In this document: piece after piece, positions 19,635-61,348 of the stretch
How the letters are laid out: every line of letters begins with the position of its first letter
How positions within the stretch are numbered: position 1 is the stretch's first letter
Virus record (IMG/VR): IMGVR_UViG_3300045974_000102
Location: 1 to 64,000 of that record
DNA length: 64,000 nucleotides
DNA from: a virus
Reading direction: 5' to 3' (one strand)
Program-made: the position numbers and the translations under genes
The notes under the pieces: generated by a model
Told to the model about the DNA's origin: nothing
What the model saw: the letters and a program-made list of their open reading frames with translations, nothing else
The model's database searches: none

Positions 19635-19661
19635 TTCAAACCTCCGTTAAGTAGCGATAAC

Positions 19662-36926: not shown

Positions 36927-37300
36927 TATTGATCAAAGACCCCGCCTATATAGAAGTGATTAAGCGCATACATTTTTGGTGTTACTCCCATGTCATTAAC
37001 CTTTCCCATAATCTTAGCATTAAATCTTCCACCTGTATGCTGGACATATACTAGTTCACCAGCTTCATATTTATTGCCTGCCATATAGTCATGTTGTGAG
37101 CACGATATGATAGCCTCAACTGCTGGATTAAAAGTGCCTTCTCTTTCTAGCACAACAGTAAAAACACCATGACCATCATCTATACTTTTTATTATACCTC
37201 TACACTGCTGAGGAGTATTGGTTGTATCTGTTGTGCGATTAAGCATGTCAATGCCTAACTCACTTACATCATTAAATAATCCTGCTATATTACCAGACAT
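36926..37300 (-). CDS. Putative spike OB-fold protein (gp5/gpV N-terminal-like)
   Basis: RGIIKSIDD...YEAGELVYVQHTGG...KIMGKV resembles a spike OB-fold; follows the hub gene. Confidence 0.45.
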   Translation of the reverse strand: MSGNIAGLFNDVSELGIDMLNRTTDTTNTPQQCRGIIKSIDDGHGVFTVVLEREGTFNPAVEAIISCSQHDYMAGNKYEAGELVYVQHTGGRFNAKIMGKVNDMGVTPKMYALNHFYIGGVFDQ

Positions 37301-40300
37301 TATGCTTTCTCCTTACACCACTTAATTACAGCGTATCTCTTTTCTGCATAATTCTTCTCAACATCATAATTATGCTTTAGCTGCTTAGAGCTTTCGCCTT
37401 TAGGTATCGGATTGTTATCTGCATCAAAGCCTCTGCATTGCATACCATTATATCTCCAATAGCTTAGCTTATGGATAACCTCTCTCTTAGCCCAAGGATC
37501 TGTGCCTTTATATTCGCCCATATATCTTGTTTCTGCATCTATAGCTCTTTCTGCTATATGTTTTACACCAGCAAATATAACCCATTTTGCATACTTCACA
37601 TGATTATCACTTAAGTCTTCCCAGCTTCTTGGAAACGCAGGAGTCTTTGTTTTAATCCAATCTGCATCCTGAGCCATTTCACGAATAATCTTATCGACCC
37701 ACTCTTTACCATGAGAGCCATCTTGTCCAGCAGATAGTTGCATTAAGCCAATGTCGCTTGACTTAGCGTGTGCATTAAATGAACTTTCACACTCTATTGT
37801 TGTAGCTATCATTAATGGGTCTAGAAGTGGAGTTGTATTTTTATACTTATTAAAAGCTCCTAATACCCAACTGAACAATACTTCTGGTGTTGCTATATCT
37901 TGGTTCTTCTTGTTCATTTGCTCAAGCTTCCATTTAATATATTCAATCCCTTTACCTGGTGGCACAGCCTGTAGGTCAGCTAGTGATAGAGGTGTTCCAG
38001 GATATGCCTTTTTGAATTCTGATGGGCTCATGTCTGCCATAGCGCCTGGTAGTGGATTAACTACATTTCTATTTGGATTCTCAAGCTTAGATATTCCTGT
38101 CCAGTTGACTGAGGTGTAGTCACCTATCTGACGTAGTGTATTGTCAATTGTTTTCTTGTAGTCTGCTATAATTCCTTTACCAAACATGAATGCATCATTA
38201 TTTTTATAGCCTTCCATACCTTGCATTAGTAGTGAATTACGATACCATATAGGATGCACTATTATTGCATTATTCTTTGTGATAGACTTAATAGCCATGC
38301 TCTCAAACAACTGCGGTATCATCTCTATACAAGTAAGTAGTAAATATGCTATACCAGCTTTCATAGGAGCTGCATGGATGATTGTGCCAAATGGACTAAG
38401 GGCTAATCTTTCTCCAAAGCTTCTCTTCGCCATTGCAGTTATAGTTGCTCCAGCCTCAGCTTCTACAGCTGCGGCTACTGGTTTTGTGGTAAGCGCCTTA
38501 GCTAGGTCTGACATAAGATTTTTCTTCTTTAATAGATTACGCGCAACTGTTGATTCAGCCCCTGCTCCGAATGTTGCTTCTTCGAGAGCTTTCGCTATTT
38601 CTATTTCTGACATACCAAGTATTTCAGCACTTTCTTTCTTAAGTATCGTAGCTATCTGATCTATTAAACTCTTTCTGCTATGGGCTGCCCATTTCTCAGC
38701 GAGTGTAGTAGCAAAGCCTTTTACATTAGTTAGTATCTCTCTAGCCCTAAACTTAGCTCTTGCTGCGTTTCTGCTTAATACTCTTTGCTCAGCACTATAC
38801 ATCCTCTCTGACATTATAAATTCATCTGCACCTCTAAGCCAGTGCATTAGCCCGCCAAAGAAATAGCCAAACTCTCCAGCAGACACCATAGCATTAAAGC
38901 CCATTGCTTCTTTAGCTAACATAGGCACATATTCGTATTCACGTCTTTCCATAGCTGCAGTATCTGGATTTGCTTTTCTATTCTTTGCTTCATCACTACC
39001 TATGACCTGACTGATAAGAAATGCCCCACCTGCTATAAAGGCAAGTGCAGCTAATACCCAGACACCCATTGATCCTAGTGCGTATCCTCCTATTGCTTGT
39101 AGGACTCCTCCTACACCAATCGTGCCTATGTGTTCAAACATAATTCGTTTGAATACTTGTGCTGTGCTTAAATACGAGTCATGGTTGACTGAACATACTA
39201 GGTTAGGCACTATATGAGTTGTATAGCCCATCTCTGAGTCGAACTTATGTATAACAGTTTCTACTTCAACCCAGCCATACATCTTGTTTACTTTGTCAGC
39301 AATGTATATCTTATCATAAGGCTCTATTTTAGAATTGCCTCTAATAATAAGTGTGCCACCATATAATCTTTCAGCACCTTCTTTAAGTCTGCCAATAGCA
39401 TATTGATTAGCCACGTCTTCATTGTCTGTCCAGTTTATAGATTCGAACTTTTTAATTAGATATGTTGGATCTATATCTGCATCAATACAGAACTCAGTTA
39501 CCTTGTCTGAGTCTTCTACGTCCTTCTGGTTCTTAGCATACTGAACAGTTATATGATTCCACCCTCTGTCAGGTGTAGCCTTTATGCCATTGTGTATAAT
39601 ATCTTTAAATGACGATACCATATGGTGTTTCTGAAATGGAATAAATGGTGCTACTGCATTGAAGAATTTGGTGCCTTCAGCAAATTCACCATATCTATTA
39701 AGCTTTGGCCCTAAGTTCTTAATTGCTTCTCTAATGCCTTCAGCATACATATCTGTGCTTAGTAGTGACATTGAGGTTAAGGATGGAGCCATTGCTTGAA
39801 TAGGGTCATCTGTTCGGAAATAATTCCATTCTGCTGGACCTAAAAATAGAGTTGAGCGGTTTCCATAAGGTCTTACATCTAGTGCATAGTTAGGATAAAG
39901 GCGCTTAATGTTTTGTAACACATCCCATATAGTAGTCTTATTATTAATATTAAAGTTAACGCCATGCCATAACTTATTCCAAATGTCAGGAGCATAGATA
40001 TTGTCATCTATTGGATTGTTACCAGACTGGAATATCTTATAGAAGTGCTGTCCTATTTCAAGACTTGCCTTCTCATTATTATATAGGGCTCCAGCGAATG
40101 AGCATCCTATCTCACGGATACGTCCTGCAAGAACGCTTAGATAACCATGCTCACCTTGCTTGCCCCACCATTTATGCATAACTTCTTCTGTCCAGATGTC
40201 TGGCACATGTGTTAGTGGTTTATATAATGTTGCTATAGATGCACCTGCAGCAGTTAGAGCCATATATCTAAATAGTTGCTTAGGTCCGAGAAAGGCCGCT

Positions 40301-43300
40301 GTAGCTGAGATGCCTGCACCAGCACCAAATATAAGTCCTGACTTCCAGCTATCTTTAAACATTGCCATTACAGAGATATGACTGCGACCAAATCTTTCTA
40401 TGAAGCTTCCATATATCTGTCCGAAGTGTGCGACTTGTGGATTACTTCTTAATATCTTACTTATAATGTCTGCATAGTTATTGCCACTTATATTTTCTGC
40501 TCTTGATGATGGCGCAGAAATAAGTTCTCTTCCGTCACCATGAGCTTCTATCTCATAAATGTAAGTATCTTTGTTTCCACTTAACGATGTAATAGTGCCA
40601 ATAAATACTGTATCTAGCATTCTAGGATCTGTTGAATATCCAAGTCGAAGTGCTATTCTCATTCCAGTGCGCAAAGGAACTACAGATGCTCCATAAATAC
40701 CAGCTGAGCCGTCTGAGAAAATACGAGTGTCTTCTTCTGTGTCCTTGATATTCTGTGGTGAGTATGGGCTAGATCCTTCAAATACATTTCTAGATGTGAT
40801 CTGATTAGGTCTTATTTCTGTAGAAATATACTTAGGGTCTATAACAATCCTGCATCTTAATAAGTGAACAGGGTTGTTCTTATCTCTAATAACCATTAAG
40901 TCTTGGACGAGTCTAAAGTCATAATAGTCATCAAGTGAATAGTATTTATAATCAGAAGTATCTGATTTAATTACATAAAGCTTATATGTAGGGAATGCAT
41001 TCTCTAGGCCATCTGTAGGCATCATGCTTTTTAGGATGTTCTCAGCACTCTGATTAGCTGCTGACTTCATATCTGCATTAGTAACTTCACCACCAGTCCA
41101 TGGCTTATCATTACTCATACTATATGCGGCAGCTTGTTCAGTTAGGTTTGTTGTATCTTTTTTGTAGTAGTTATATATAGCCTTATCTACTGCATTAGTA
41201 GGCGTTGCAGAGGCATCAGATCCATAACCTGTAGAAGTAATCTGAGTTGCATCTATCATTGGTCTCCATGTGTTAGATTCAAACTCTGCTATGCTGCTCC
41301 CTTGGTAGCCTGGCATGCCATCTATCGTGTCTTTCCATAAGCCATTTAAATTACTTGGATCACTAGAGCCAGCTTTAGTAAATGTATTTATCCATACATC
41401 ACCTGATGGAGCCAGTGTGTCACTTGGAGAGAGCGTGAACTTAGTGCTATTGAAATCTCTAATCGGACCTTCGGCATTGAAAACATATTCTGAGACTGCA
41501 CCTATACTATCTGTGTAGCCCATAGAAGATAAATAGTATGCCGCTGGACATCTACTTAAAAGTCCAAGCTGTCCTTGGAGTTCCATTAGTGTTCCATATC
41601 TAGGCATTGGAGCGCCAAGCTTCGTGTTATCTTTTATAATTGGATGACAGTCAGATACTAGAGTTGAGCTTACAGGTCCTACTGTTCTGCCATCGGCTCT
41701 CTTAATAGCAATCCCTCTGCTATTTCCATCTGCTACATTTACAATATCGCCTTGCTCCTGCTTTTTATCATTATTATAAAGTCTGGCAGAGTAAGTAGAT
41801 GTAATAAATCCTTCTGCTTCTTTTCTAAGTGCATTCATCCTGCCATATGCACAGTCTGTAAGCATGCTTGTGCTAGTCAGACTTGTTGGTGGTCTATCTC
41901 TACCTTCTACTATAGATCTAGCCCATCCTGCCCATCCTATAGTTTTAGGATCCATCATAGCCTTGGTAAGTGATGATTCTTTTCTTTCATCGTCTCTAAC
42001 TACTTTGCCATCTTTGACATAATTAACATTCATATCTTTAAGTCTTGTTGGCATTGTGTTTGCTATAATAGGACTAAGTGGAGAGTCTTTATCTATAAGG
42101 TCTTTAAAGGTTGCACCTTCTTCGGCACTAAAGGATTCTCTTGCATAAACATTCTTCCATACTGTTGTGTTCATAGATGGAGAAACAAAGTCTACAACGT
42201 CTGTCTTAATTTTGTCAAGGAACTCATATAAGTTAGTTACTTTATAGTTAACATACCAATCGCCCATAGTGGCTGAGTCAAGCATAGATGCTGCTACAAA
42301 ATTATCAATCCATGGGAAATATCTATGGCCGCCCCATGGCTTAATTTTCATAAGTTCAGGTTCAAGGATTACTTCTCCTTCTGGAACTTCTTCTTCGGAT
42401 TGGTTTTCTACAGACTCGCCGTATGTTCCAGTGCCTTCAACTACGCCTCTTATTAGTAGAACATAAAGTGCTACCCAGCGCCTTACGCTGCTGTTAGTTG
42501 AGATGTCTCTTTCGCTCTTAATATCAACTTCTAGGATCCAGTTGCCGCTTACTCCATCTTCGCCTTCTGTTGCAAGATATTCTTTGCACTGGGTAGTCAT
42601 CTTACCATAATTACGCAAGATCGCGTGCTCTCTGTAGTCACCTTCGAAGTAAAAATATAGGGCTCTGCCATCATTTGCAAAAGCTTGTTTCTGGTTCCAT
42701 GTTTCTTCGAATGCATCTTTAAACAAAGCCATAAGTAATACTTTGGCATTCATTCTCTGTTCAGCAGTGGCGGTTTTATCAAGCATTGCTAACAGTTGGC
42801 CTTTAGTTATCGTGTTTAGGCCTGATGTTATATTCTTAGTAAAGTAACTTGATGAATATTCTGGTAGCTCAGCAAACTCCTCATCTGCAAAGCGAGACAT
42901 TTTATTTATTTGCCAATTCTCTAATGATTTAATTACGCCTACATTTGATTCTGGTAAAAGCAGTTTATCTTCATATATACCACCAGCTAAAGCTTCAGCA
43001 AAGGTTATGTTACCTCCACCCCACTCTGGATTTGTGCTTCTTATAAAGAACTTCCAATTATTAAATATCTTTGATTCGTTCCATCCGGCTTTACGACTTA
43101 CTACGTCAGTTACTAAAGCAAGGAGTTGGGCTATTTGCTTATATTTAGTTCTAGCTCTATTGTCTGTTACAGTGCTATAGAGCTGTGCTCTGCTATCTAT
43201 AAGGCCCATGATGCCAGTCTTTGGGTCGTCTGCTATAAGAAAGTAAGATGAAAGTATAGCCCTGGTAGCTTTCTTAAATACTGACAAGTCTGGTGGTATG

Positions 43301-45525
43301 CCATTGAATGAGTTCTTAGCCATCTTATCTAGAATATCATTCTCACCATCAGCTAATGAATTAGTCTTTTCTCTTTCAATAATTTTCCCAACTCTTGCCT
43401 TAACTGCTTCATCTGATTGGGCGATAGCTACTACTCTACTAAGCCCCCAATAGGAGTCTTGCTGAGCTGCTTTATTAATATAGCGAGCATTGTAAATATA
43501 AGACTCTTTTGTTAAAGAAAGATTTACATCACTTAAACCTGGGTGTCCATCAAGTGAGGTAATAATAGAACTCTGCAGTGTAAGAACTTCTGTCAAGCAT
43601 AGTTTGGTGACACCATTTGCTATTATGTATCTGCCATCATAAGTTCCATAGTTTGGACCTCTATCATATTCTGGTCTATAGGTCTTTAATACTTTACTAA
43701 TAGTTTCTGAGTTAGTTGTCTTGAAGTTAATATCTACGTTAGTTTCGCCTGGTCCAACATACTGAGCTGTTGGAATAGACATGCCAATGATAGGTATCCA
43801 TGCAAAGTTGTTTTGATATGTTACAGCAAGACTATGTGCTTCTTCTTCAATAGTCGAGTCTACAATTAAATTTAATCTTCTGGACATTTCTTCAGCTTGT
43901 CCATTGCTAGCTTCAACTGCCTGATGAAACTTCTCTCTATCTATTTTATGGATTAGTAGAGATGAGTCTTCTGCGAACCATACGCGGTCTGGGTCATTAA
44001 GAATTTCTTCAACGAATAAGTTGTATGGGTGTATCGCATCTTCTAGGACAAGTGTCTTAGGAATAGTTGCATCTTTTTCGTCTTTAATAGTTGTCTTTAG
44101 AGACAAGTCTTTTAACTGTGATATTGTTCTTGCATTCTTATCATACTTATAATATTCAAGTCTTTCAAATGTATCACCGTTGAAATATGAGTTATAATTA
44201 AATAGTGAGAACTGGAATGTTGCGCCTAGTGAGCCTGGGTGTCCATCTAATGTGTAGACAGTATAAGAGTCCATTGTAACAGGAATATAGTCTGTGCCAG
44301 CATATGGACTTAGTATTACATGTCCTTCTCCTATCAACTTTCCAACTAAGTCAACTGATCTAATAAGATTAAATGGACAGTATGTATACTGCACAATAAT
44401 TCTCTTTAGTTCATTGTTGATAGCCTCTTCTCCACTGAATATTACGTTCATCTTTATTGCAAGTCTATTCGTAGAGTTAGAAATTGGCTTAGACTCTCTG
44501 CCTAATATAGGGACGCTATATGTTGTGCGCATTTGAGCAATAGTCACGTGTGTAGGAGGAACCTTAAGCCACACGTCGCCTATCTTAATTATTTCAGTTT
44601 CACTATCACATTTAGATAAGATCTCTTGTCTTCTAAGATCATCCGTGCCATAGAGTTTATTAAAGTCTCTTCTGGCTGTATCTCTCATTGCAATAACAGA
44701 CTGATTCTGTGGAGTTGTAGGCAGAGCTGCTGCATTTGCTACATCTGGATTTAGCTTTAGGAATGCTGCAAATCTTTGATTTAGGTATTGTGGAGTAATA
44801 CTATTTACTGCATCTGCCCATGCTGGATCTTTTGATGGAAGCAATGGTATAGCTTTGCCTATATCAACAAGCATAACATTTAACTCTCCTCGTTGATCTG
44901 TAGCTATACCATAATCGTTTACGAATGGGAGACCTGTTATTGCTGTTTGATCTTCAAATGCTACCTGAGCAGGAGTTATGGCTCCAGTGCCAAGACTGTC
45001 AGTTCTTAGCTTCTGGATATCTAATACCATATTAGGATTTTTAAAACCTTCTTGTAAAGTTTCATGTAGAAGTATAGTGCCTTCTACAGCTTTACCAACT
45101 TCTGGAACAGCATTACCTTTTGCATCTACACCAGCAAGGTTGCTATTAGTGGTTATATGGGCAAGAGCAACTTGTTCGCTGCTGCCATCTGTATAAACAA
45201 GTTCAAGTTGAGTGGGTCCAGTTGCTTTAACAAAAGATACTATCTTGCCAGGCTCAACACCTTTTACTTGTTTGCTGTTAACCATTACAGTAGGATATGT
45301 ATTTATATCTCCAGAGCGATAAGCTTGATATGTTGGTGTGTCGACCTTATATGCAGCATGCTGAGCTATTGTTGCCATTGATGCTTTTAAATTTTGCGCA
45401 GTTGTCCCATTACCTGACCAAGCTGATGTTGAGAACTTCTTTTTATTTTCATCTAAAAGGTTGTAATTCCACACATTAGCTGCTACGGAACTTACACCAT
45501 CATACGAACTTTTTAAAATTGCCAT
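37300..45525 (-). CDS. Giant baseplate hub / tail lysin with C-terminal lytic transglycosylase
   Basis: Hub-like LRTGMRIALRLGY...VFIGTI and GTLIIRGNSKIEPYD; C-terminal IECESSFN...IGLMQL...RYNG (SLT motifs); internal hydrophobic segments. Confidence 0.75.
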   Translation of the reverse strand: MAILKSSYDGVSSVAANVWNYNLLDENKKKFSTSAWSGNGTTAQNLKASMATIAQHAAYKVDTPTYQAYRSGDINTYPTVMVNSKQVKGVEPGKIVSFVKATGPTQLELVYTDGSSEQVALAHITTNSNLAGVDAKGNAVPEVGKAVEGTILLHETLQEGFKNPNMVLDIQKLRTDSLGTGAITPAQVAFEDQTAITGLPFVNDYGIATDQRGELNVMLVDIGKAIPLLPSKDPAWADAVNSITPQYLNQRFAAFLKLNPDVANAAALPTTPQNQSVIAMRDTARRDFNKLYGTDDLRRQEILSKCDSETEIIKIGDVWLKVPPTHVTIAQMRTTYSVPILGRESKPISNSTNRLAIKMNVIFSGEEAINNELKRIIVQYTYCPFNLIRSVDLVGKLIGEGHVILSPYAGTDYIPVTMDSYTVYTLDGHPGSLGATFQFSLFNYNSYFNGDTFERLEYYKYDKNARTISQLKDLSLKTTIKDEKDATIPKTLVLEDAIHPYNLFVEEILNDPDRVWFAEDSSLLIHKIDREKFHQAVEASNGQAEEMSRRLNLIVDSTIEEEAHSLAVTYQNNFAWIPIIGMSIPTAQYVGPGETNVDINFKTTNSETISKVLKTYRPEYDRGPNYGTYDGRYIIANGVTKLCLTEVLTLQSSIITSLDGHPGLSDVNLSLTKESYIYNARYINKAAQQDSYWGLSRVVAIAQSDEAVKARVGKIIEREKTNSLADGENDILDKMAKNSFNGIPPDLSVFKKATRAILSSYFLIADDPKTGIMGLIDSRAQLYSTVTDNRARTKYKQIAQLLALVTDVVSRKAGWNESKIFNNWKFFIRSTNPEWGGGNITFAEALAGGIYEDKLLLPESNVGVIKSLENWQINKMSRFADEEFAELPEYSSSYFTKNITSGLNTITKGQLLAMLDKTATAEQRMNAKVLLMALFKDAFEETWNQKQAFANDGRALYFYFEGDYREHAILRNYGKMTTQCKEYLATEGEDGVSGNWILEVDIKSERDISTNSSVRRWVALYVLLIRGVVEGTGTYGESVENQSEEEVPEGEVILEPELMKIKPWGGHRYFPWIDNFVAASMLDSATMGDWYVNYKVTNLYEFLDKIKTDVVDFVSPSMNTTVWKNVYARESFSAEEGATFKDLIDKDSPLSPIIANTMPTRLKDMNVNYVKDGKVVRDDERKESSLTKAMMDPKTIGWAGWARSIVEGRDRPPTSLTSTSMLTDCAYGRMNALRKEAEGFITSTYSARLYNNDKKQEQGDIVNVADGNSRGIAIKRADGRTVGPVSSTLVSDCHPIIKDNTKLGAPMPRYGTLMELQGQLGLLSRCPAAYYLSSMGYTDSIGAVSEYVFNAEGPIRDFNSTKFTLSPSDTLAPSGDVWINTFTKAGSSDPSNLNGLWKDTIDGMPGYQGSSIAEFESNTWRPMIDATQITSTGYGSDASATPTNAVDKAIYNYYKKDTTNLTEQAAAYSMSNDKPWTGGEVTNADMKSAANQSAENILKSMMPTDGLENAFPTYKLYVIKSDTSDYKYYSLDDYYDFRLVQDLMVIRDKNNPVHLLRCRIVIDPKYISTEIRPNQITSRNVFEGSSPYSPQNIKDTEEDTRIFSDGSAGIYGASVVPLRTGMRIALRLGYSTDPRMLDTVFIGTITSLSGNKDTYIYEIEAHGDGRELISAPSSRAENISGNNYADIISKILRSNPQVAHFGQIYGSFIERFGRSHISVMAMFKDSWKSGLIFGAGAGISATAAFLGPKQLFRYMALTAAGASIATLYKPLTHVPDIWTEEVMHKWWGKQGEHGYLSVLAGRIREIGCSFAGALYNNEKASLEIGQHFYKIFQSGNNPIDDNIYAPDIWNKLWHGVNFNINNKTTIWDVLQNIKRLYPNYALDVRPYGNRSTLFLGPAEWNYFRTDDPIQAMAPSLTSMSLLSTDMYAEGIREAIKNLGPKLNRYGEFAEGTKFFNAVAPFIPFQKHHMVSSFKDIIHNGIKATPDRGWNHITVQYAKNQKDVEDSDKVTEFCIDADIDPTYLIKKFESINWTDNEDVANQYAIGRLKEGAERLYGGTLIIRGNSKIEPYDKIYIADKVNKMYGWVEVETVIHKFDSEMGYTTHIVPNLVCSVNHDSYLSTAQVFKRIMFEHIGTIGVGGVLQAIGGYALGSMGVWVLAALAFIAGGAFLISQVIGSDEAKNRKANPDTAAMERREYEYVPMLAKEAMGFNAMVSAGEFGYFFGGLMHWLRGADEFIMSERMYSAEQRVLSRNAARAKFRAREILTNVKGFATTLAEKWAAHSRKSLIDQIATILKKESAEILGMSEIEIAKALEEATFGAGAESTVARNLLKKKNLMSDLAKALTTKPVAAAVEAEAGATITAMAKRSFGERLALSPFGTIIHAAPMKAGIAYLLLTCIEMIPQLFESMAIKSITKNNAIIVHPIWYRNSLLMQGMEGYKNNDAFMFGKGIIADYKKTIDNTLRQIGDYTSVNWTGISKLENPNRNVVNPLPGAMADMSPSEFKKAYPGTPLSLADLQAVPPGKGIEYIKWKLEQMNKKNQDIATPEVLFSWVLGAFNKYKNTTPLLDPLMIATTIECESSFNAHAKSSDIGLMQLSAGQDGSHGKEWVDKIIREMAQDADWIKTKTPAFPRSWEDLSDNHVKYAKWVIFAGVKHIAERAIDAETRYMGEYKGTDPWAKREVIHKLSYWRYNGMQCRGFDADNNPIPKGESSKQLKHNYDVEKNYAEKRYAVIKWCKEKA

Positions 45526-45537
45526 TATAACCTCTTG

Positions 45538-48500
45538 TTAGGAGTATCTATACATATCTTCTTTATAAGGATTTGAACCATCTTGGCGGGTATGAACTGT
45601 ATTATATCCTCTGGAGGATACAATGTTTCCTATTGTTGACATCGCTTCTCTGCTGTCTGTTAATAAGTTCATGCTCGTATTATAATTTGCTTTGGTCTGT
45701 AAAGTTCTCTGTGAACCCATTTGAGAGCGTGGTGCTTGGAACGCTGGATTGTTTACTGATGGTAAATCATTTGGATCTTCAATAGCTCCATCGTCTGTTG
45801 CTAAATTCCACATAGCTAAGCCTGCTAGTGCTGCAGCACCTGCCCCTATCATTCTTGGTAGTGTGACATGATCCTCAATAAACTTCCAAGCCTTATCAAC
45901 TCCAGCGAATTTCCTTGACGGTGGCACATAAGATCTTCTGAGCGTCTCAGCTACAGTCATTTCAATATTAGCATCTATAAGTTTAGACCTGTGCATGTGA
46001 TCCATTATAATTTTAGGTATATCTTCTTTATTAGTTTTACCAGTTTCAACTCTCTTAGCTAGCGAGTTAAGCATGCCGCCTATACTGTCAGATGTTCCAG
46101 CCCCAGCTCCTTCGTCAATACCCTTAGAGAGCATGTTAAGGAAGCCACCATTGAAACCAAGTGCTTCTGCTTCGTCTTTGCTAAACTGTGATGCTATAGT
46201 TGGTGTATTTTTGATTGCTCTCTGATACTCTGCGAATGCATCTTCTACCTTAGTTGTGGCACCTGAATATCTGTGAGCTACACCATACTCGTCGAAATTA
46301 AGCTCTCTGATATTATATGTTAGGTCAGCTAAGTGATTAGAGGCATTCCACATTTCTGTGCCTCTAACTGCATTTTCTGCCATCCATGATGTTCCACTCT
46401 TTCTTGCTGCTATAGCTGCATGAGCTAAGATGGGGCTCATCTCACCGCCAGAGTTTCTAAGTAGATTTACATAGCCTTCATCTGTAATATTGCCCATAGC
46501 TTTAAGCACATTATCCATAGTAGCCTCGACTCCATTGGGGCCAAGGATAGACTGTATATGCTTTGAACTAATAATGCTCTGCTCCCAGAACTTAGGGACA
46601 AATGTATGAATGAATGTTCTATATTTTGAGAATGTGTCTTCAGCTATTCTGCCATCTACAAGTCCTTCAAGGCCACCTTTCATCTGGAATGTCTGCGCAG
46701 AGAATGCACCTGTTAGGCCTTTAGTAAGCCATGCTGCTATACCAGTATTAACCTCAAGATGGGAGGCAGATTCGAACATTGCCTCAACTTCTTTATCTCC
46801 CATTTTTGCAAATGATTGGAATCTCATATCTGGGAATAGAGTGCCAATTGCACTTCTGTTTCCTGCTGCGTTCATAAAGTTAAAGACAGTCTTCTGGTTA
46901 CCATTAATTTCAGCAAGTCTTTCTGCTTTAGCTTTGCTGCCAAACAGTGTGAGTAATTGTATTTTATCACCGTCATGGTCAGCGTTCATAAGTAGTCTTT
47001 GTGCATGACCTAGTGCTAAGCTCTTGCCTTGTATCGGATTCTTTTGATCCCAGTCTGGGAAGATATTAGCTAGTGCCATACTCTTGGCGTAGATAGCAGG
47101 GTAACGTGTGACCATGCCAGTTAAGCCTTCTTTATCAATTATATTCATTGCCTCTTTGGAATAAAATCCACCACCACCATCTAAAAATTTATTTATATAC
47201 CATTCTAATTCTTTACCTTTAGCAATTTTAGCTTCTGCCATCATACTGCCTACTGTATGTAGTGTATCATTTTGCCAAGCAAATAGACTCTCTCTTGATT
47301 CTATTCCCGCCACATCTAAGTTCTGCTCAAAGAAGTTTCCTTCACCAAACCAGTCTCTAAGAACATCTTTTACTTCTACATTATTGCTTTCAGCTGCAGA
47401 CATTGCTTCAGATAACATTTCATCTATTGAAGCCGCATATGTTTCTTTTGAAACTTTAGTTACATTACCTATTGCGTAATGTAGGTCTTGAGCTTCTTGC
47501 CAATAGGATGCCTTATCTTCTACCATCTTTTCAAGCTTAGTTAATGGTGATGACTTCTCTGATAAGAAGTTTACATCTGGAGTATTCATACTATAATAAG
47601 CCCCAGGGACGTGTAGTGATGCTTCACGTAGGATGCCGCCCTTAGTTGAATGTCCATGAATATCTACAGCATATGCTAAAGCCTCTAGTCCACTTTTGCT
47701 TAATTCTCCTTGTGGTGAGTTAACTACATCATTAAGTAGCTCATGCACTTTCCATGAGAAGTCGCTCAATGCTACCTTATCTTCTTCAGGCATATAGTAG
47801 CCGCCTTTGAAGTAGTCATTGCCTGGTATAAAGACTTGTCTGTCATGTGCCTGTAGTAAGAAGCCGTTTGGATTATTGTTTGAAGATAAGAATGAATCCA
47901 AGAAATGTAGTGGATCCTGAATGTTTCTTCTGGCTTTATCGCCATATCCATAAGGTCCCATTATTTTCTTTAGCTCTTCAACATCAACTAACTTGGCATC
48001 TGTAAACGCAGATACATCTTCACCTGCAATAGACATCTCCATTAGGCGCTGTTGCTCCATAAGCCTTGGTGTGTCTATTATACTTCTTAGAGACAGTTCT
48101 TCCATGACACCAGGAGTGTCTCTTAGATACTGCATATCTCTAAATCCTATACGCATTGTGTTACTGCCTATGCCTTGCGCAAGAGATTCAGTCTCTTGTG
48201 GCGAGAAGCCAGTCGCAAGCCAGAAGTTTGTATCTAGACCCTCTAGCGCATGGTAATCATGCCCAAATTTACGTTCATAATTTAAAAAGCCTCTCTGGCG
48301 CATCTTATTATAGTTACGAGGACCTAGTCTATTTGTGGCATATTCTAGTCCTTCGAAAACTAACCTTTCAGTATTCCTGTGCGCTAGTATCTTAGCCTTT
48401 CCAGTTGTATTAAGCGCATTTAAGTCTTCAACAACTTTTTCTCCCATATAACCTAGGTCATCAAGTGACCCTATTGATGTATCCATTCCAGCATGCCTTT

Positions 48501-50883
48501 GCAAGCCAACTAGGTTTTGCACATCAAGAAATTGCTGCACAGGGTTATCGCTTATCTGAAACTGTAGTCCCTCAGTCTTTGCAATCTCACTGAGGTTAAG
48601 ATCGCCTGTGCGGTTGCCAGTAAGGTATTGTGAGAAGCGTGACGCTGCATCGCCTGTAAGAGTTAAATTATTGTCTAGAGCAAGTAAGTGTCCTCTTAGA
48701 GCATCTTGCATAAATGGTAGAGCTGCTCCTACATTCTTTCCAATAACTTCTGATGTCGGACCAGTACCGCCTTTCGGGCCATGAATAGCAAGTAATGCTT
48801 TCTCGTAATAGTTAAGAGACATTCTAAATTCATCTTTCCCAGGTGAGTACATCCTAGTGACAGCAGCACGCGTTGACTGGCCATGAGCTAAAAGCTTAGT
48901 TGTGTCTTCTATATATTTGCCGTGCAAGATCCAGCCATCATAGCCAAGCTCTTGGCGTAAAGCTCTAGACTCAAGAGTCCGTAAGATATCTTCTTCGTCT
49001 TGCTCAAACATTGCTTCTGCTCTCACTAAAGATTCTCTGCCTACAATTTCTTCGTCTTTAGCTATATCACCTGTGAGCTGTCTACCTACTCTATTGACTC
49101 CAATATGTGTGCCTTTTTTCATTGTTAACTTCTGAACATCTATGTCTCCAGCAGCTATCTTCTTATATACACTACCTATCGAGCCAACACGTCTTTCGCC
49201 AGATTTAGTTATATAGTTGACTTCAGCTTCCTCAGCATAGAAGTTTTCAAACTTTACTTTTTTATATGTACCATCTTCCTGCATTTCTTCTCTATATTCT
49301 AATTTTGGCACAGTAAGTCTCTTAATGAAATCATCTACATATATATTCTTTCCTCTCTTAACTGACAAATCTACCCATCTAGATACTTCAATAGCCTGGT
49401 CTGTTGTAGGGTCTAGTGTGCCTAATAGATTAAGATTTCCACCTAGTCTCATATGCTGTAGGTGTGGACTTTCCATGTAGTTATTTGTAAACATGCCTGG
49501 GTTATATCTTGCTTGTGTCGTGCCGAAGTAAGACGGCTTGTTACGGTTAGCGAATGATATTCCTTTAAATGCCTTATCGCCTTCTGCTTGGTAGATGCCA
49601 TATAGGTTTTCTCTAGCATTTGCCGATAAGTCTGCTACCTGCTTCTGCGGACCTACAAATCCGAAGTGTTTCTGTAGAAATGATTTAGTCTTTTGGAAGT
49701 TAGGGTTTACTGCCTTTGCTCCCATGGTCTTTGTTTTGAAGGTCATTAGGTCTGGGTTGCCACGGATACCTTCACCCATCCCATACAATAGTCTTTGGAT
49801 ATCAGGATTGAAAGCATCTTCCCCAGGACGGAATGAATGCAATTGCGATGTGCCCATAGCTACTGAGTCAATGCCTTTTAGATGTGCCTTATCGCTTAGC
49901 TTTAGTCTACCAAAGAATGTTGCTTCGAGCTCTGAGCCTGCTAGTGCTTCTGCTGCGGGATTAACACCTTGGATGTTCTGAGCTGTTTCAGTTGCGCCCT
50001 TTAATACTTTAGCAAGCATCCTTGCTAGATTGGTTTGAGAGCCAACAAGACCAGCCTGCTCTCCTATAGTAACGGCCATCATTTTCTCAATATCGCTCTT
50101 AGTAACGCCTTTGCCTTCTAGGCTCTTGTAATAGTCACGTGCCATGTCAAAGTCTAAGCTTCCAACAATACCACGCTTCTTTATATCCCTAAGTGACTCA
50201 AGGATATGAGTGTTAGGATCCATTACCTCAGCACCAAGACCTTTGGGTGTGTCTACTATATCGTATTTCCTTGAGTGCACCCATCTTGAATGTGTGCCTT
50301 CTTGTATCCTTGTCTCTACCCACGCTTTAGAGCTCTCATCGTATTTCGAGAAGGGCACATTAAGTTTATATCCGCCTACGTCTACGATAGCATTGGTGCC
50401 TTGGAAGCCTTCAAATCTTCCCTTGATACCTATACTCTCAAGTATACCCATAAGCTCCTGACCGATAGGGCTGCCCTCTTCATCAACTACCTCTTCTAGC
50501 TTATTGAAATACTGCTTACCAGCTCTTCCTTTAGATGCGCTTAGCTGTGCAGCATCAAGGTCATGTCTAATAAGTTCATACTTCTCAGCATTTTTACCAG
50601 CTAAGTCTTCTCTGAACTTATTTAGGATCTTGTTCCTTGGGTTAGCTTTCGCAGAGCCAGTAGACATTGCCTCATACATTCTATCAGCTACCTTAGCTGA
50701 TGTGCTTTTCTCAGCAGCAACTTTAGGATATATAAAGTTGACAGCCTTTGTGCCTACTTCCATAAACTTCTTTTTATCGTAAGCATAGAACCCAAGTGCT
50801 GCTGCACCTGTGCCTAGAATGCCAGCAGTCATTAGTGAGCCAAGAGTGCCTGAGTCTTCTTCATATGGGCTGTTCGGGGTCAT
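45538..50883 (-). CDS. Putative virion-packaged two-barrel RNA polymerase-like protein
   Basis: MVTRYPAIY...LMNADHDGDKIQL matches the beta-prime-type RxP...NADFDGD active-site motif; located in the tail module; Ala/Gly-rich hydrophobic segments at both termini. Confidence 0.65.
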   Translation of the reverse strand: MTPNSPYEEDSGTLGSLMTAGILGTGAAALGFYAYDKKKFMEVGTKAVNFIYPKVAAEKSTSAKVADRMYEAMSTGSAKANPRNKILNKFREDLAGKNAEKYELIRHDLDAAQLSASKGRAGKQYFNKLEEVVDEEGSPIGQELMGILESIGIKGRFEGFQGTNAIVDVGGYKLNVPFSKYDESSKAWVETRIQEGTHSRWVHSRKYDIVDTPKGLGAEVMDPNTHILESLRDIKKRGIVGSLDFDMARDYYKSLEGKGVTKSDIEKMMAVTIGEQAGLVGSQTNLARMLAKVLKGATETAQNIQGVNPAAEALAGSELEATFFGRLKLSDKAHLKGIDSVAMGTSQLHSFRPGEDAFNPDIQRLLYGMGEGIRGNPDLMTFKTKTMGAKAVNPNFQKTKSFLQKHFGFVGPQKQVADLSANARENLYGIYQAEGDKAFKGISFANRNKPSYFGTTQARYNPGMFTNNYMESPHLQHMRLGGNLNLLGTLDPTTDQAIEVSRWVDLSVKRGKNIYVDDFIKRLTVPKLEYREEMQEDGTYKKVKFENFYAEEAEVNYITKSGERRVGSIGSVYKKIAAGDIDVQKLTMKKGTHIGVNRVGRQLTGDIAKDEEIVGRESLVRAEAMFEQDEEDILRTLESRALRQELGYDGWILHGKYIEDTTKLLAHGQSTRAAVTRMYSPGKDEFRMSLNYYEKALLAIHGPKGGTGPTSEVIGKNVGAALPFMQDALRGHLLALDNNLTLTGDAASRFSQYLTGNRTGDLNLSEIAKTEGLQFQISDNPVQQFLDVQNLVGLQRHAGMDTSIGSLDDLGYMGEKVVEDLNALNTTGKAKILAHRNTERLVFEGLEYATNRLGPRNYNKMRQRGFLNYERKFGHDYHALEGLDTNFWLATGFSPQETESLAQGIGSNTMRIGFRDMQYLRDTPGVMEELSLRSIIDTPRLMEQQRLMEMSIAGEDVSAFTDAKLVDVEELKKIMGPYGYGDKARRNIQDPLHFLDSFLSSNNNPNGFLLQAHDRQVFIPGNDYFKGGYYMPEEDKVALSDFSWKVHELLNDVVNSPQGELSKSGLEALAYAVDIHGHSTKGGILREASLHVPGAYYSMNTPDVNFLSEKSSPLTKLEKMVEDKASYWQEAQDLHYAIGNVTKVSKETYAASIDEMLSEAMSAAESNNVEVKDVLRDWFGEGNFFEQNLDVAGIESRESLFAWQNDTLHTVGSMMAEAKIAKGKELEWYINKFLDGGGGFYSKEAMNIIDKEGLTGMVTRYPAIYAKSMALANIFPDWDQKNPIQGKSLALGHAQRLLMNADHDGDKIQLLTLFGSKAKAERLAEINGNQKTVFNFMNAAGNRSAIGTLFPDMRFQSFAKMGDKEVEAMFESASHLEVNTGIAAWLTKGLTGAFSAQTFQMKGGLEGLVDGRIAEDTFSKYRTFIHTFVPKFWEQSIISSKHIQSILGPNGVEATMDNVLKAMGNITDEGYVNLLRNSGGEMSPILAHAAIAARKSGTSWMAENAVRGTEMWNASNHLADLTYNIRELNFDEYGVAHRYSGATTKVEDAFAEYQRAIKNTPTIASQFSKDEAEALGFNGGFLNMLSKGIDEGAGAGTSDSIGGMLNSLAKRVETGKTNKEDIPKIIMDHMHRSKLIDANIEMTVAETLRRSYVPPSRKFAGVDKAWKFIEDHVTLPRMIGAGAAALAGLAMWNLATDDGAIEDPNDLPSVNNPAFQAPRSQMGSQRTLQTKANYNTSMNLLTDSREAMSTIGNIVSSRGYNTVHTRQDGSNPYKEDMYRYS

Positions 50884-50892
50884 AATATATCC

Positions 50893-53800
50893 TTAATATA
50901 AATACTGGAACTGTGATAGTAGAATACCACCATACTTATCGTATCTCTTTCTGACACGATGATCTTCTTCGTCTGTTGTCTCTTCTAAGTGCATCATAGC
51001 ATTAGGTGATGTTACTGGTGCGCCGTGTGATGATTGTATAACGTCATTCTGTGCTATATATGGCAGTATCTCTCCCGTCATGGTAGCACTTGTATTATGG
51101 ATAGAGTTTATGTCAATAGCTGATTGATAAGCTCCTGGGCTATAAACTGCTCTTACTAAGTGGTCATCGAAGAAGCCATAGTCTTCTATTTGTTCGCCCT
51201 GGTCTTTAAGTGCCAACACTTCTACTTTTTCAATGTCAACGTCAGGTGACCAGCCAAGCCAATCAGTCCCTGGAAGAGCATGACTATTAGAATACTGCTG
51301 AATAATCTTTGAGCGTGCCCAGTCGCCTCTTGTAATGCCAGTGCCATCAGTCTCGTGCATATACTGACGAATATCACTATCAGATAGATCGAAGGCTTCG
51401 TTTGCTTGTATCTCTGCAAATTCTTCTCTATCTCTTTCAGAACCTGCCTCTGCTAATCTCTTTGCCCATAGACCCTTATAAAGACGCTTAGATGCTTCTG
51501 GTAAGAACTTAAATATTTTGCCACGCTTCTCTGGACTGCTTTCATTTGCAAAGAAGTCAAAGTATGCTCTTTCGTTCTGTGGCAATGCTGTTAATTCATC
51601 ACGTAAGCTGTTATCTGTTGGATCTGCACCTATCATAGTAGAGCGCCACTTAGCATGGTAGAACTCTGCTTCTTGATAGTCGCCAGCGTCAGAAGATTGG
51701 TTAGCTAGCATCTTATATTTTAGATATTTGATTATATCCCAATACTGCTGCTTCTCTCTTCTTTCTGCTGTAAAGCTTGGTATAGTATCAATACCGAATA
51801 CGCGGTGTCCTATATTTGCTATCATAGGCTTTAATAGATGTTCGATAGGGTGCTGCCAAAGTCTTACTTCTTTACCAAATACTTGATAGTCTAAATAGTT
51901 AGTGAGATAGTCTCTATTAGGGATAAGTTTTCTATCCCAGAAGGTAGACTTATCTGTCATATTTTCCCAGTAGCCAGCGAGAAAAGTATTATAAGAGCCT
52001 ATCTTATCTTGCGCTAAGTTGTGCGAAGCTAGATTACCTGTATCTGCGAAAGGAGATCCTTCGTCCCACATATCTTCTTGCATGCCGCTCACATAAGCCT
52101 CAAGCCCTTTAGACATGTCTGGCATTGACTCTGGAGCAGCAACTTGCATATCTATTCTTTTGCCGGGCGATAGATGAGAAGCCATTGCGCTCATAGAAGA
52201 CTTCTGTATTTCTAAGGCGTCATTTGCTAATTGGCTTGTGTCATCATATCTAAACTTCTGAAGCAGTCTTGCTCTAATGTCCTGCACTCTATTGGATACG
52301 CCAGCCGCTCTATATGTAGTCTCATCTCCTTCAAGGCCAAACTCACCAGTTTCTAGGTCTGCCCAGTCTACTACACCTGAGCGATCTTCTGTCGCTATGC
52401 TCTGAGTATATTCTTGAGAATGTGCAAAGATCTGCTTCTTTAACTCACCAACTTGAGTTAATGTATCATAGTATCTCTGTTCTTCTGCAGGAGAAAGGTT
52501 GTTCCCTATTGCTAGCTGCAAAACGCTAGCTGATGTATTTCTAAATTCTGACGAGTATGGAGCTATCTGCTGTAAGATTTCAAGTCTAACTGGATCTGGA
52601 TACTCTTCTAAGTCCATTCCTTTAACTTCAGGAAACAAGAACTCCCAGCCTTTACGTGATGTCATTAACCAGCCCTGTGGAGCCTTATCAAATGTGGTGC
52701 CATGCGTATAGTCAATGCTTTGTTTGCTTCGCTCTGAGTTCCATATATCTTCTTCTCTTTGAGGTATCCAGTTAACACCAAATAGCTCATTTGGAAGATC
52801 GTTGATTGTCCACTTAGATCTCGGATTAGTAAACACACGACGTAAGAACTCGCCACCTATACCTGTAATATCTCCAGCTCTCCATCCCCACATGATCTGT
52901 GCTGGATCATACATTGCTGAAGCATCTGCTTTTCTTGGGACATAAGAATCAATACCCTTCTTCCCTGCAGCAAACTGATATAGAGAGCGGAACATGAAAC
53001 CTTTGAAACCAGAGTATTCAGTTCCTTGATCCCACATCTTAATCATATTCTGTCCGAATAGATTATCAGATCTCTTCATAGCCTCATAGAGCTGCGGTGT
53101 AGAGTCTATAGCAGAGTTGTTATGTTGAATATCTACAGCTAGCCTTAAGTTCTTAGCTACTGCTCTTTCATAGTATTGGTCGGCCTTATCATCTGGGATG
53201 CCTCCACCACCAAAGAAGTTAGGCTTTATGCCACGAGAGTCTAACTCATCAAATACTCTCTGCATTTCCGCAGATGGGTCATTGAAGTAGTTATCGGACC
53301 TTACGCGCAAGAAAGACCAGCCCTCTTGTTCAAGTTCCCTTTGTCTCTTAGCATCCTTAATCTTCTTCTTGCCACTATGGAAAGATACACCGTCAGCTTC
53401 AAGGGCAGCATATTTACTGCCATCTCTAATAACCATATCTATATAATAATTACCTTCATTTATCTGCGGGTAAACATCATAGCCCTGAGCCTTAAGTGAT
53501 TGATAAATCCCTCTTTCAAAAGGATTGCCTAATTCGCCTTCGCCTGGCTTATGGTATTCTTTCTGAGGTTTGATTACTCTACCTATTGTTGCAGCGATGA
53601 GTGGCCCGAGCAAAGGTATGTTCTGTCCATATTGGGATGATTTATATACCGGTTGTGATTCAGCGTGGTAGTCCTCTAGCATGTATCTATCGAATAGGCC
53701 GAACGTAAATGAGTTGAGTAGTCTATGTCCATAGCTCGGATAGATAACTCCCTTGTTTTGCCAGTCAGACTGTATAAGATTTAATGCCTCTCTTCTGTAT

Positions 53801-56800
53801 TGGATTACTTTGCCACCCTGATATGGCGTTGGCGATAAAATCCATCCTCTATTTTTTCTTACTTCAATATCTCTATTGCCATTAATAATAGCCTTACGTT
53901 CTTCATAAGTTTTATTAGAGCCTAAGAAGCCAGGTAGAAATGGGATCATAGGGGCCATTAAGAGGCCAAATGCTGCAGTCTTTGGGTTTTGTATTAGCCA
54001 ATTGAATGCTCTTTGAGAGCCAGTCTTAGTAACAGCGCCTACAAACTTCTCTGGCCTTAGAGCTTGTCTAAGCCATGGAGCAACTTGTATATTAGATTTA
54101 AGTAGATCTCTACCTACTTTATCAAAAGATCTTCTAATATAAGATGGGCCTGTCTTATATAAGTGTTGAGCAAATAAAACTGTAGTAGCTGCACTAATAG
54201 CTGGAGCTAAAACACCTAGACCTGTAGATCCTGGAGCAGCTTGCTCTTGACGCTTTGCCATCCTCGTTAAGCCAAGAATATCTGATATCTTAGAATATGC
54301 TAGCTGAGCTTTGTGATAAGCAGCTATAGGAAGCCCTGTAAGCGGTCCTGAGCCTTTATCAAACGTTAAGGCACCTAACATATGGTTTGCTAAATCAAAT
54401 GCCTTGTAGGCCGCATATGCTGGCAGAATACGCTTAATGCCAATGTCCATGAAGTAGCGAGGAATGCCACCCTTCATATCATATACAGGTAGGCCTAAGT
54501 GTGGCGCATTGATAAATTCAAGAGCACGACCAGCCATAGTGTAGATTGGGTTATGAGACTTAGTGAGCTTGTCTATTGTCTTGCCCATGAATTTGTTGTC
54601 AACAAATAGAACCTCGAATGGAGTTTCAAGGAACTGGTTCATAGGGTTAATAGTTATTTCTCTAAAAGCCTTGCCCCAGTGGCGAGCCATTTGATGGATG
54701 CCTTCTTTGCTCCATCTCTTTGCGCCACGGTAGCTCTGAACAAGAAGTGCTGTGTCTGCATCTCTTGTCATTTTGCCCATGTTCTTATAGAGTAAGTTAG
54801 TGCCGCCACCAATGCCTTTAGGTAGCATGTCAAGGTGCCATTTAACTGTCTCAATTGCTTTCCATATAGGTTGGAAAGTTGGGTTGCGTTTCATGAAGTC
54901 AGATTTTCTTGCTGTCTTTAAATACTCATCTAGTGGTATCTTATAGGATGCTCCTGATCTGACCAAAGATTCTTGAACTCTACCAAATACAATTGGGTTA
55001 ACTTGTCTAGTAAACTCTCCAGTTGCTCTATTAAAACTATTAACATTCTTGGCGCTAGCTGTTCTTAATTTAGATATATTAAGGTTTACATCAAGGACAA
55101 ACTTGCGTCCCATTCTATCACCATTAAGACTTTGATTTATAGCGTTAGATGCTTCGTCAAATTCTTGATACCATATTACTGCTGCACCATTAGGTTGTGT
55201 GCTTATCTTAATTATGTTCTTCTTAACCTTATCTGGTATTCTAGTAGGCTTAAGTATTTCAGATATTTCATCAAAGACTTCTGGGTTAGTATCTTGTATA
55301 GAGGCTAGTAGGTCATCAACAGCAATGCCATGATCATGTAAGCCTCTGATCCTCCCGCCGTTGATAGTAGAAAATCTTTTCCATTTACCACTAAGTTGTC
55401 CAGTTGCTTCATCAACATCACCTATAAATCTCTGTGACCCTCTACCCATATATTCGTGCATAGATGAAACGCGAAAGAGTCTGAATGTTGGCACAGCAGC
55501 TTCTATTTTTCTTGCGCCATAAAGCATAGTGCGGCCAAGCATTGTCATTGCTTCGCCAAGATTTGTTGGTATAACTTTAGACTTATGTGCCCCAAGTAAG
55601 TTTGGGTCATGTAACATTGCCGAGAAACCTACTGACCATAATGATAAGCCTGCTGTGAAGCCAAGTGCGCCAAGTCTGCCTACCATAGTAAGTGCACTAG
55701 CGCCGTCTGCTTCATTACCAGATGAATAAGTTTTATATTCATTAGATATACCAGTCTTGTTAAAGCTCATACTACTGCTTGAAAGCTTTTGTTTCTTATC
55801 TCCACCACCAAAATAAGTAGCTGCACCAAGTAATGCAAAGACACCAGCTAAGCTTGAATATTGAGCTATCTTAGTTGCAGCTCTATTGTGCTCCATGAAG
55901 TTCATGGCGTTGTGAAAAAATCCACCGCCTCCACCTCCTGCACCTCCACCTCCACCAAACATGGAAGGTGTAAAGCCACCTGACTTAGATGCATATATAG
56001 AAGAGAACCCTTTCTTTATACTGCTTGTTCTTTTGTCTATTAGACCTAGCATTTGTTGAGTAAGCTCTGAGACACTATAGCCTTGCTTCTGAGTTTCACG
56101 CTCCATAACATTTTGGAAAGCCTGATGTAAGAACTGGCCACCAATATCAGATCGTAATACCTTATCTATACCATGTTTTAATTCGTCTCCATGATTGCCT
56201 TTTGTGAGCGAGTTCTTAAACTCATCCATAACATCACCAAAGGCAGCTTTTAGTGCAACCTCAAGGCGTGTATCAGCACCAGCTACGTGTAATTCTTTTC
56301 CATTAAAAAATGGCTTAACTTTACTATGCCAGGAGAATAGATTTGCTACATCTTCAACCTTCCAAAATATAGCGTGTTGGAATTCTTCAAAAGTATTAGG
56401 CGCTCGCGCTATTCTGCCTGCAGTCTCTTTAAAGGCGATTGGGTTAATATTAATTGTTAACCGCTCCATGATATTTCTATCTTCTTTAGCAAGTCTGAAA
56501 GCTAATAGTTGCCAATCATGTTCAGCACCTATAAAATTAATTTTCCCTGCTTCATATAAACCTTTAAATCTTTCATAAGCTTTTTTATCTCGCTTAGCAA
56601 GCTGAACAAGCATTGCTGGAATATCGAAGTCTGTATTCCAGGTCATTATATTTTTAACCTTGCCAGCGGTAGCATCATTCATTAGATTATCTAAAACATT
56701 AAACAAGCCTTGCTTCTCTGCTTTATTATAAAAAGCTTCTTGTGTCATAGATTTCATTTCAATGTTGCCGTTCAATCCTTCAAGAAGGGCTTGAACCTGG

Positions 56801-57348: not shown

Positions 57349-57910
57349 CTACAAACTCCCCATTTGGTCCCATATCGTTAAAGTAATTTGCAACAGCTTT
57401 AAGTTCCTCAGGCGTTACTGACTTAATACCCTTTTTAGGCTTAGAGCCACCTTTCTCTGCAGAGAAACTCTCACGCATCTTATTGGTATCTATGGCTGGT
57501 TTGCCTAATACAGCCTCACTAAAAGCAAGCTCTTCCATAAGTTCATTAAGTGTCATCTGTTTTAAGTCTTTAAGTGTATATGTAGGCTGTGCTTGTATGA
57601 TAGCTCTGTAGAACATAAAATATAAGCTGTTTTCTACATTTGCACGTGCCTTCTCAATTAGCACTGGCACATCAGTAAGCTTCATTATGAAGCCCGATAG
57701 TTTCATTGCGCAGCCTACTACTGCAAGGATAGCACCTGCTTCCAGCTCTTTAGCATTATATTTATGGTCTGTTATTTCGTTAAAGATAAATTCTTCAGTA
57801 TTAGGATTTTCTTTAAGTAGAGCAGCACTGAACCTATCTGCTTCGTCAGCAGTTAGTGTTCTGAATATAATGTCTGTAGAGTCTGCCAGAGGAAGTTTAT
57901 ACTTCTTCAT
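57335..57910 (-). CDS. Tail assembly chaperone candidate
   Basis: IIFRTLT...YTLKDLKQMTLNELMEEL; immediately upstream of the tape-measure-position gene. Confidence 0.6.
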   Translation of the reverse strand: MKKYKLPLADSTDIIFRTLTADEADRFSAALLKENPNTEEFIFNEITDHKYNAKELEAGAILAVVGCAMKLSGFIMKLTDVPVLIEKARANVENSLYFMFYRAIIQAQPTYTLKDLKQMTLNELMEELAFSEAVLGKPAIDTNKMRESFSAEKGGSKPKKGIKSVTPEELKAVANYFNDMGPNGEFVDGSF

Positions 57911-61261: not shown

Positions 61262-61283
61262 GCTGCACCTCGTAAATTTTTAT

Positions 61284-61323
61284 AAAAAAGGCCCGAAAGC
61301 CATATGGATGACAAGTCGGGCCT
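61284..61323 (-). terminator. Intrinsic terminator after the tail tube gene
   Basis: Minus strand AGGCCCGA...TCGGGCCT followed by a T-tract. Confidence 0.8.
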
Positions 61324-61348
61324 CAGTTTTCTGCCTTCAATAAAGAGT

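Follow-up and report, generated by a model that had tools for sequence, protein, structure and literature searches.

The stretch of viral DNA analyzed here, the window, comprises positions 1-64,000 of the linear 115,882-bp IMG/VR record IMGVR_UViG_3300045974_000102 (G000; completeness 56% according to CheckV). On its minus strand lies an open reading frame (ORF) with an ATG start, P0001 (45538..50883; 1,781 amino acids, aa), which we read as a single-chain, fused beta/beta-prime-type RNA polymerase encoded in the tape measure slot of the tail operon. We consider it probable (about 0.65) that P0001 is a catalytically competent single-chain two-barrel DNA-dependent RNA polymerase (RNAP) in the tape measure slot of a jumbo myovirus of the 0305phi8-36/ME3 type, and that it is borne in the virion, injected and used to transcribe the first phage genes.

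The Mg-binding loop of P0001, R-Y-P...NADHDGD, spans aa 1260-1306 (46966..47106). Both of its elements were found where a preliminary description, made from the nucleotide sequence, had placed them: R-Y-P at 47098-47106 (aa 1260-1262) and NADHDGD at 46966-46986 (aa 1300-1306), with 37 residues separating P1262 and N1300. When every ORF of the record that is 300 aa or longer was scanned for R-x-P followed by DxDxD 20 to 80 residues on, only two ORFs carried the pattern, and both are polymerase candidates. Residues R1260, P1262, D1302, D1304, G1305 and D1306 of P0001 were invariant in 20 to 24 homologues. Because the pattern is confined to two ORFs and its residues remain invariant at approximately 20% identity, the motif is unlikely to have arisen by chance. 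The His within NADHDGD, which had been regarded as unusual, proved unremarkable, as the same position in the family is occupied by H, L, N, T, Q, F, W or Y. Two weaker upstream motifs had also been pointed out and could be placed. Of TKLLAHGQSTR (aa 662-672; 48868-48900), likened to KxxxRHGxK, both basic ends (K663 and R672) are invariant; of TTDQAIEVSRW (aa 493-503; 49375-49407), likened to EDxIxxS, conservation is limited to I498 and an acidic residue at 495/496.

P0001 belongs to a family that escaped annotation. No match was found in Pfam, in PHROGs or among PDB sequences (phmmer for the latter), nor by tblastn in 50,697 phage records, and the ESM Atlas gave no usable match. A word-indexed search of 5.8 billion proteins yielded just one relative, the 1,766-aa P0002, which is 42% identical and lies on a contig of 401,713 bp; longer, fused versions of P0001 did not appear, which is weak evidence that there are none. 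Pattern scans of IMG/VR and metagenomes with a two-sequence alignment gave no loci; a scan of IMG/VR with a 20-sequence alignment gave 4. A HMMER search with aa 400-1599 against 1.84 billion representatives yielded 28 relatives, mostly of 1,650 to 1,900 aa, 13 of them below 1e-30. Judged from these searches, the P0001 family (about 28 clusters) is real but unannotated. Conservation was assessed in an alignment of 20 full-length members that are about 20% identical to P0001 (the catalytic residues in 20 to 24 homologues). Besides the residues of the Mg-binding loop, K663, R672, K716, E897, G904, T1387, G1392, Q1435, S1439, K1441 and an extreme C-terminal block were invariant. The preliminary description had made its claim depend on conservation of DxDGD, and distant homologues keep this sequence without exception. 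The 20 members gave no match to the Pfam RNAP models; one of them matched the PHROG "RNA polymerase beta subunit" family (E = 0.0019).

At the sequence level, only a marginal profile match of about 50 residues links the family to beta-prime subunits. When the family profile was compared with PDB sequences, the top match was a beta-prime chain (8x6f_D; E = 0.059) and the second gp55, from phage phiKZ's non-virion RNA polymerase (nvRNAP; E = 0.19), and both alignments fall on R-x-P...NADxDGD. An hhalign comparison with Escherichia coli beta-prime covered the same loop (residues 420-473), as a 54-column motif match only, and one with E. coli beta gave nothing meaningful. The predicted fold extends this link. 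An AlphaFold2 model of aa 400-1599, built from a 24-sequence alignment, had a mean predicted local distance difference test (pLDDT) score of 78 and a predicted template modelling (pTM) score of 0.77, with pLDDT values of 83 to 93 around the motifs, the Mg-binding loop included. In a Foldseek search of the PDB with this model, the top 50 matches were all beta-prime chains, the best being chain d of the phage AR9 nvRNAP (4e-5), and their alignments reach aa 1599. Proteins that consist only of a double-psi beta-barrel (DPBB), namely the designed msDPBB, CDC48-N and VAT-N, aligned on aa 1094-1330 (46894..47604), which bears the motif. A DPBB around the motif, another point on which the preliminary description had staked its claim, is thus predicted by alignment with DPBB-only proteins and beta-prime subunits alike, and the triad D1302, D1304 and D1306 lies on this beta-prime-type barrel, as in members of the two-barrel RNA polymerase superfamily. 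In an independent fold search both halves of P0001 led to RNA polymerase subunits, and no other kind of protein was among the top 15.

The idea of a two-barrel polymerase in one chain was likewise borne out, with a beta-type half bearing invariant basic residues upstream of the motif in the same polypeptide. Its proposed likeness to the single-chain enzymes of the YonO, crAss or P23-45 kind needed correction: by fold, P0001 is nearer to multisubunit beta/beta-prime. The crAss enzyme gp66 (6VR4) was absent from the top 50 structural matches, an absence that is not evidence against kinship.

From N to C terminus, P0001 consists of an anchor helix, beta-like N and C parts, a beta-prime-like part, a second anchor helix and a conserved tail (all coordinates on the minus strand). 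The N-terminal region (aa 1-35; 50779..50883) combines a conserved motif, in which N4 is invariant and Y7 nearly so, with a hydrophobic helix at aa 12-35 that, in roughly half of the family, exceeds the hydropathy threshold; one long predicted helix, coiled-coil-like and of low model confidence, follows at aa 61-105 (50569..50703). Residues 134-433 (49585..50484) resemble the N-terminal half of beta-type subunits (the lobe/protrusion part), and residues 405-903 (48175..49671) form a module like the beta-subunit C-terminal half, including the beta-type barrel. Within this module, K663 and R672 sit on a hairpin (48868..48897; strand aa 651-666, turn, strand aa 672-678; pLDDT 82 to 90) comparable to the K-x7-K of beta ("GDKxxxRHGxKG"), and a further invariant lysine is K716 (48736-48738). 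In beta, the corresponding basic pair is K1065/K1073; from this pair and the hairpin topology of the model, we infer that K663 and R672 are the basic pair of the active site and face the aspartates of the Mg-binding loop.

The beta-prime-like module (aa 953-1599; 46087..48027) contains the DPBB and, past it, a long helix at aa 1376-1409 (46657..46758) with invariant T1387 and G1392 and near-invariant K1388 and T1391. This helix, which presumably resembles the beta-prime bridge helix motif, is a candidate bridge helix, and the segment "EQxxISSKH" (aa 1434-1442; 46558..46584; invariant Q1435, S1439 and K1441) a candidate trigger-loop start. An Ala/Gly-rich hydrophobic helix at aa 1673-1696 (45796..45867) is present in all 20 family members; together with aa 12-35 it accounts for the hydrophobic, Ala/Gly-rich termini that had been noticed earlier and are real. 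The chain ends in a strongly conserved tail (aa 1698-1781; 45541..45792; DPNDLPSVNNP ... LLTD ... DGxNPYKxDMxxY), in which D1706, N1735, L1740, T1742, D1768, P1772 and Y1773 are invariant in the 20-member alignment. Simple helices are confined to aa 14-105 and the C-terminal helix, and residues 130-1600 are predicted to adopt a globular, mixed alpha/beta polymerase fold, not an extended helical tape measure chain.

The surroundings of P0001 place it in a tail operon, as the preliminary description had proposed, since the flanking genes are homologous to sheath, tube, chaperone, ORF145 and hub of 0305phi8-36/ME3. ME3 and 0305phi8-36 share the gene order sheath, tube, tube paralogue, ORF142, two chaperone genes and three giants. 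In the window, the corresponding minus-strand genes encode the sheath (from 62050 to beyond the window; PHROGs and 0305phi8-36/ME3 homology), the tail tube (61349-61993; homologous to 0305phi8-36 ORF140, BLASTP 1.8e-24), the tube paralogue (59930-61261; homologous to ORF141 by BLASTP), an ORF142-like protein (58361-59926) and two chaperone-like proteins (57922-58329 and 57335-57910). The label "major head protein" (phrog_9206) for two genes in 59930-61993 looks wrong, as BLASTP leads to the tube and tube paralogue ORF140/ORF141. P0001 follows the chaperone-like genes and an ORF145-like giant and precedes the hub, which is the position of a tape measure gene, and is separated from its giant neighbours by 9 and 12 nucleotides (nt).

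The upstream giant (50893..57348, minus strand; 2,151 aa) is a homologue of ORF145 (local hmmsearch, 1e-36) and ME3_35 (6e-38) and has an endonuclease domain of the REase_MTES_1575/DUF559 type at aa 1277-1369. The downstream giant (37300..45525, minus strand; 2,741 aa) is a homologue of the baseplate hub ORF147 (5e-19) and ME3_37 (2e-32). A staphylococcal-nuclease domain (profile E = 4.5e-8) lies at its N terminus and a lytic transglycosylase at its C terminus, and its segments aa 2133-2178 and 2379-2408 are hydrophobic. As predicted from sequence, the domains of both neighbours suit a role in entry. The block of three giants is syntenic with ORF145-147 of Bacillus phage 0305phi8-36, of which two, ORF145 and ORF146, are marked in GenBank as "identified as virion protein by mass spectrometry". 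It is kept, in one copy per genome, in G000 and four other IMG/VR genomes, whose trios measure about 1,950 to 2,150 aa, 1,660 to 1,830 aa (the DxDGD protein) and 2,470 to 2,740 aa; one of these genomes (G001; 206,638 bp) is rated 100% complete. A baseplate wedge protein is encoded at 34881-36086 (PHROGs), and the terminase has its closest counterparts in Moorella phage MTATph1, Acinetobacter phage ME3 and Bacillus jumbo phages. Between tail-fibre-like genes, a Cas4-like/PD-(D/E)XK exonuclease gene was observed on the minus strand (25410-26279; phrog_1706, 3e-18).

In the named phages, the slot of P0001 between the ORF145-like and hub genes is occupied by ORF146 of 0305phi8-36 ("hypothetical tape measure protein") and by gp36 of ME3 ("hypothetical protein"). 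No annotation or description calls either of them a polymerase, and neither shows detectable sequence similarity to the P0001 family. The family profile had no match in phages ME3 and MaMV-DC, and a weak BLAST alignment between P0001 and ORF146 (E = 0.062) was rejected, as no catalytic motif was aligned. ME3_36 of Acinetobacter phage vB_AbaM_ME3 (L025:13173-17984; 1,603 aa) had no BLAST relatives among the 50,697 phage records; it contains R-E-P...GGDHDQDQ and has hydrophobic helices at places matching those of P0001, the C-terminal segment included. The P0001 model was matched (Foldseek, 1.3e-5) by A0A172Q021_2, the BFVD model of an ME3 protein that we take to be ME3_36 (accession not checked). 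The model of a second ME3 protein (A0A172Q0S6; 798 aa) also matched; a search with this protein gave no match in the genomes studied here.

The second ORF with the polymerase pattern lies outside the window, on the plus strand (G000:104979-108044, equivalent to L004:6979-10044; 1,021 aa; RNP...FGDEDGD at aa 478-526), and sits among non-structural genes in the motif scan of all ORFs of the record. Pfam, PHROGs and PDB sequences gave no match for it. In the ESM Atlas, the clusters nearest to it are viral and labelled "RNA-dependent RNA polymerase", and 57 to 91% of their members carry PF05183 (score 0.96), the family of 0305phi8-36 orf99 and YonO (PMC7824862, PMC2147016). Homologues are present in the complete relative G001 (17155-20247; E = 5.6e-20) and, as P0031, on the 401-kb contig of P0002. 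It is a likely non-virion polymerase and a candidate for the second means of transcription that is expected of a phage with a virion RNA polymerase. PF00623 (RNA_pol_Rpb1_2) and PF00562 (RNA_pol_Rpb2_6) had no match in the genome of P0001, with controls matching in 14 of 14 cases, and neither these two nor sigma70_r2 matched in G000, G001 or G004. Profile searches of the same three genomes found no host-type sigma or canonical RNAP gene; a T7-type RNAP was not matched in them either, which is uninformative, as its control matched nowhere. Two further observations concern this part of the record outside the window. Three plus-strand genes (G000:102570-104985) share the start context (G)GAGATATAGTCATG or GGTATATAGTCATG, which looks like a conserved ribosome-binding/start arrangement and not like a promoter. 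By eye, intergenic stretches at about G000:99200-100750 look markedly richer in G+C than the rest of the genome (roughly 38% G+C) and may belong to a foreign insert.

By analogy, the phage probably carries P0001 in its particle and injects it to start its own transcription. In the mechanism that we propose, the basic residues K663, R672 and K716 would come from the beta-like half (aa about 130-900). The beta-prime-like half (aa about 950-1600) would contribute D1302, D1304 and D1306 for Mg binding, together with the bridge-helix-like helix and the trigger-loop-like segment, with this core flanked by the two hydrophobic helices and the C-terminal tail. P0001 would be a late product, incorporated into the tail or virion together with its two giant neighbours. 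Contraction of the sheath would expel it, so that it leaves with the DNA; its terminal helices would perhaps anchor it in the membrane, and it would transcribe the first phage genes without the host enzyme. These genes would include that of the PF05183-like second polymerase, which would then take over. A polymerase gene in the tail operon and another among early/middle genes would fit the relay of virion and non-virion enzymes in phage P23-45.

Several points weigh against this proposal. Virion presence and injection are inferred from gene position and relatives, and RNA synthesis is predicted from motif and fold. The lumen of the tail tube has no room for a folded core of about 1,500 aa, so P0001 would need an extended or unfolded state there, or storage elsewhere. 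A search by k-mers in the genome and its intergenic regions gave nothing convincing as a shared early-promoter motif. ORF146 of 0305phi8-36 lacks DxDxD and any detectable similarity to P0001, and the slot is therefore not always occupied by a recognizable polymerase.

Fold and catalytic residues are silent on where P0001 acts, and it might be an active two-barrel polymerase that never enters the virion, a product of the late operon working inside the cell, for instance on late genes. We regard this as unlikely, since the gene is packed tightly between homologues of virion proteins in an arrangement kept in five genomes, a separate PF05183-like polymerase is already encoded among the non-structural genes, and neither terminal hydrophobic helices nor a highly conserved C-terminal tail would be expected of a soluble cytoplasmic enzyme. 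The same termini could instead mark P0001 as chiefly a tape measure or ejection conduit, its polymerase activity being vestigial or serving to pull or ratchet the 200-kb DNA into the cell. P0001 does sit where 0305phi8-36 has ORF146. Hardies et al. took ORF146 for the tape measure because of its length and noted that relatives conserve only its last ~60 residues (PMC2147016); the conserved extreme C terminus of P0001 recalls that lineage. Yet residues 130-1600 are predicted to be globular, the strict invariance of the catalytic residues speaks against a vestigial site, and entry driven by transcription is argued to be too slow at such a genome size (PMC2147016); we hold this explanation to be quite improbable.

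We give little credence to a two-barrel polymerase of other specificity, such as an RNA-dependent RNA polymerase, a primase-like enzyme or a PolD-like DNA polymerase. The lack of matches in Pfam, PHROG, PDB sequences and the ESM Atlas would suit a fortuitous motif in a structural protein that has neither the fold nor the function of a polymerase. This explanation is largely refuted by the invariance of the motif across the family and by a fold search that returned RNA polymerase subunits for both halves.

We also tentatively entertain a more specific account, to which we give less than even odds. Throughout this jumbo myovirus lineage related to 0305phi8-36/ME3, the "ruler" slot would hold a complete fused beta/beta-prime polymerase of multisubunit-type origin, independent of YonO, crAss gp66 and P23-45 gp96. 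It would traverse the tail extended and regain its fold with its two terminal helices anchoring it in the membrane, coupling entry of the 200-kb genome to first transcription before handing over to an unrelated PF05183-type polymerase, in a relay assembled from two lineages.

To our knowledge, virion-delivered two-barrel RNA polymerases are established by experiment only for jumbo phages of the phiKZ/AR9 type, the crAss-like phage phi14:2 and Thermus phage P23-45. If our proposal holds, a large unannotated clade of contractile-tailed jumbo phages would join these carriers, and the link between a polymerase and the tape measure position would be seen a second time, independently. The enzyme would be a compact one-chain form, closer in structure to cellular beta/beta-prime than the single-chain forms known so far, and would bear on how multisubunit polymerases became simplified or assembled. 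Early transcription independent of the host enzyme would affect escape from host defences and from rifampicin-type inhibition. The size of P0001 also sharpens the question of how a polymerase is stored in, and passes through, a tail, and the proposal offers a testable reading of "hypothetical" giant genes in cultured phages, such as ME3_36 of Acinetobacter phage ME3. We found no paper describing the P0001 family, which is also absent from a 2026 review, and a 2021 survey of jumbo phages credits the 0305phi8-36/ME3 lineage only with a YonO-like enzyme (PMC7824862).

Among the known systems, the nearest folds to P0001, as judged from the model, are those of multisubunit beta/beta-prime and their split versions in jumbo phages (phiKZ, AR9). 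Those enzymes, phiKZ and AR9 included, are built from two to five polypeptides, whereas P0001 is one chain, much smaller than beta plus beta-prime; unlike them, it has no detectable Pfam RNAP domain, carries hydrophobic helices at its termini and has its gene in a tail operon. SPbeta YonO and other PF05183 (QDE-1-type) polymerases, such as 0305phi8-36 orf99, are single-chain two-barrel phage enzymes like P0001, but this family corresponds to the second candidate (G000:104979-108044) and not to P0001, whose family has no PF05183 match. The crAss-like phage phi14:2 carries a giant virion single-chain two-barrel polymerase, gp66 (PDB 6VR4), beside two giant virion proteins (bioRxiv 10.1101/2020.03.07.982082), one of them with a wall- or protein-degrading domain, which is the same three-gene logic as in the P0001 block; gp66 differs in belonging to a podovirus, in its motif (DFDID), in its place in a QDE-1-like clade and in having no sequence match to P0001. 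By analogy, the nearest working counterpart of P0001 is gp96 of P23-45, a tape-measure-fused virion two-barrel RNA polymerase (PDB 8h2m/8h2n) that works with the non-virion RNAP gp64 (PMC10770324). P0001 shares no sequence homology with gp96 and is not fused to a long tape measure body. Both are single-chain two-barrel proteins with DxDGD, tied to the tape measure position and equipped with membrane segments, and both phages have a second, non-virion two-barrel RNAP (here a candidate), for which the same relay in early transcription is proposed.

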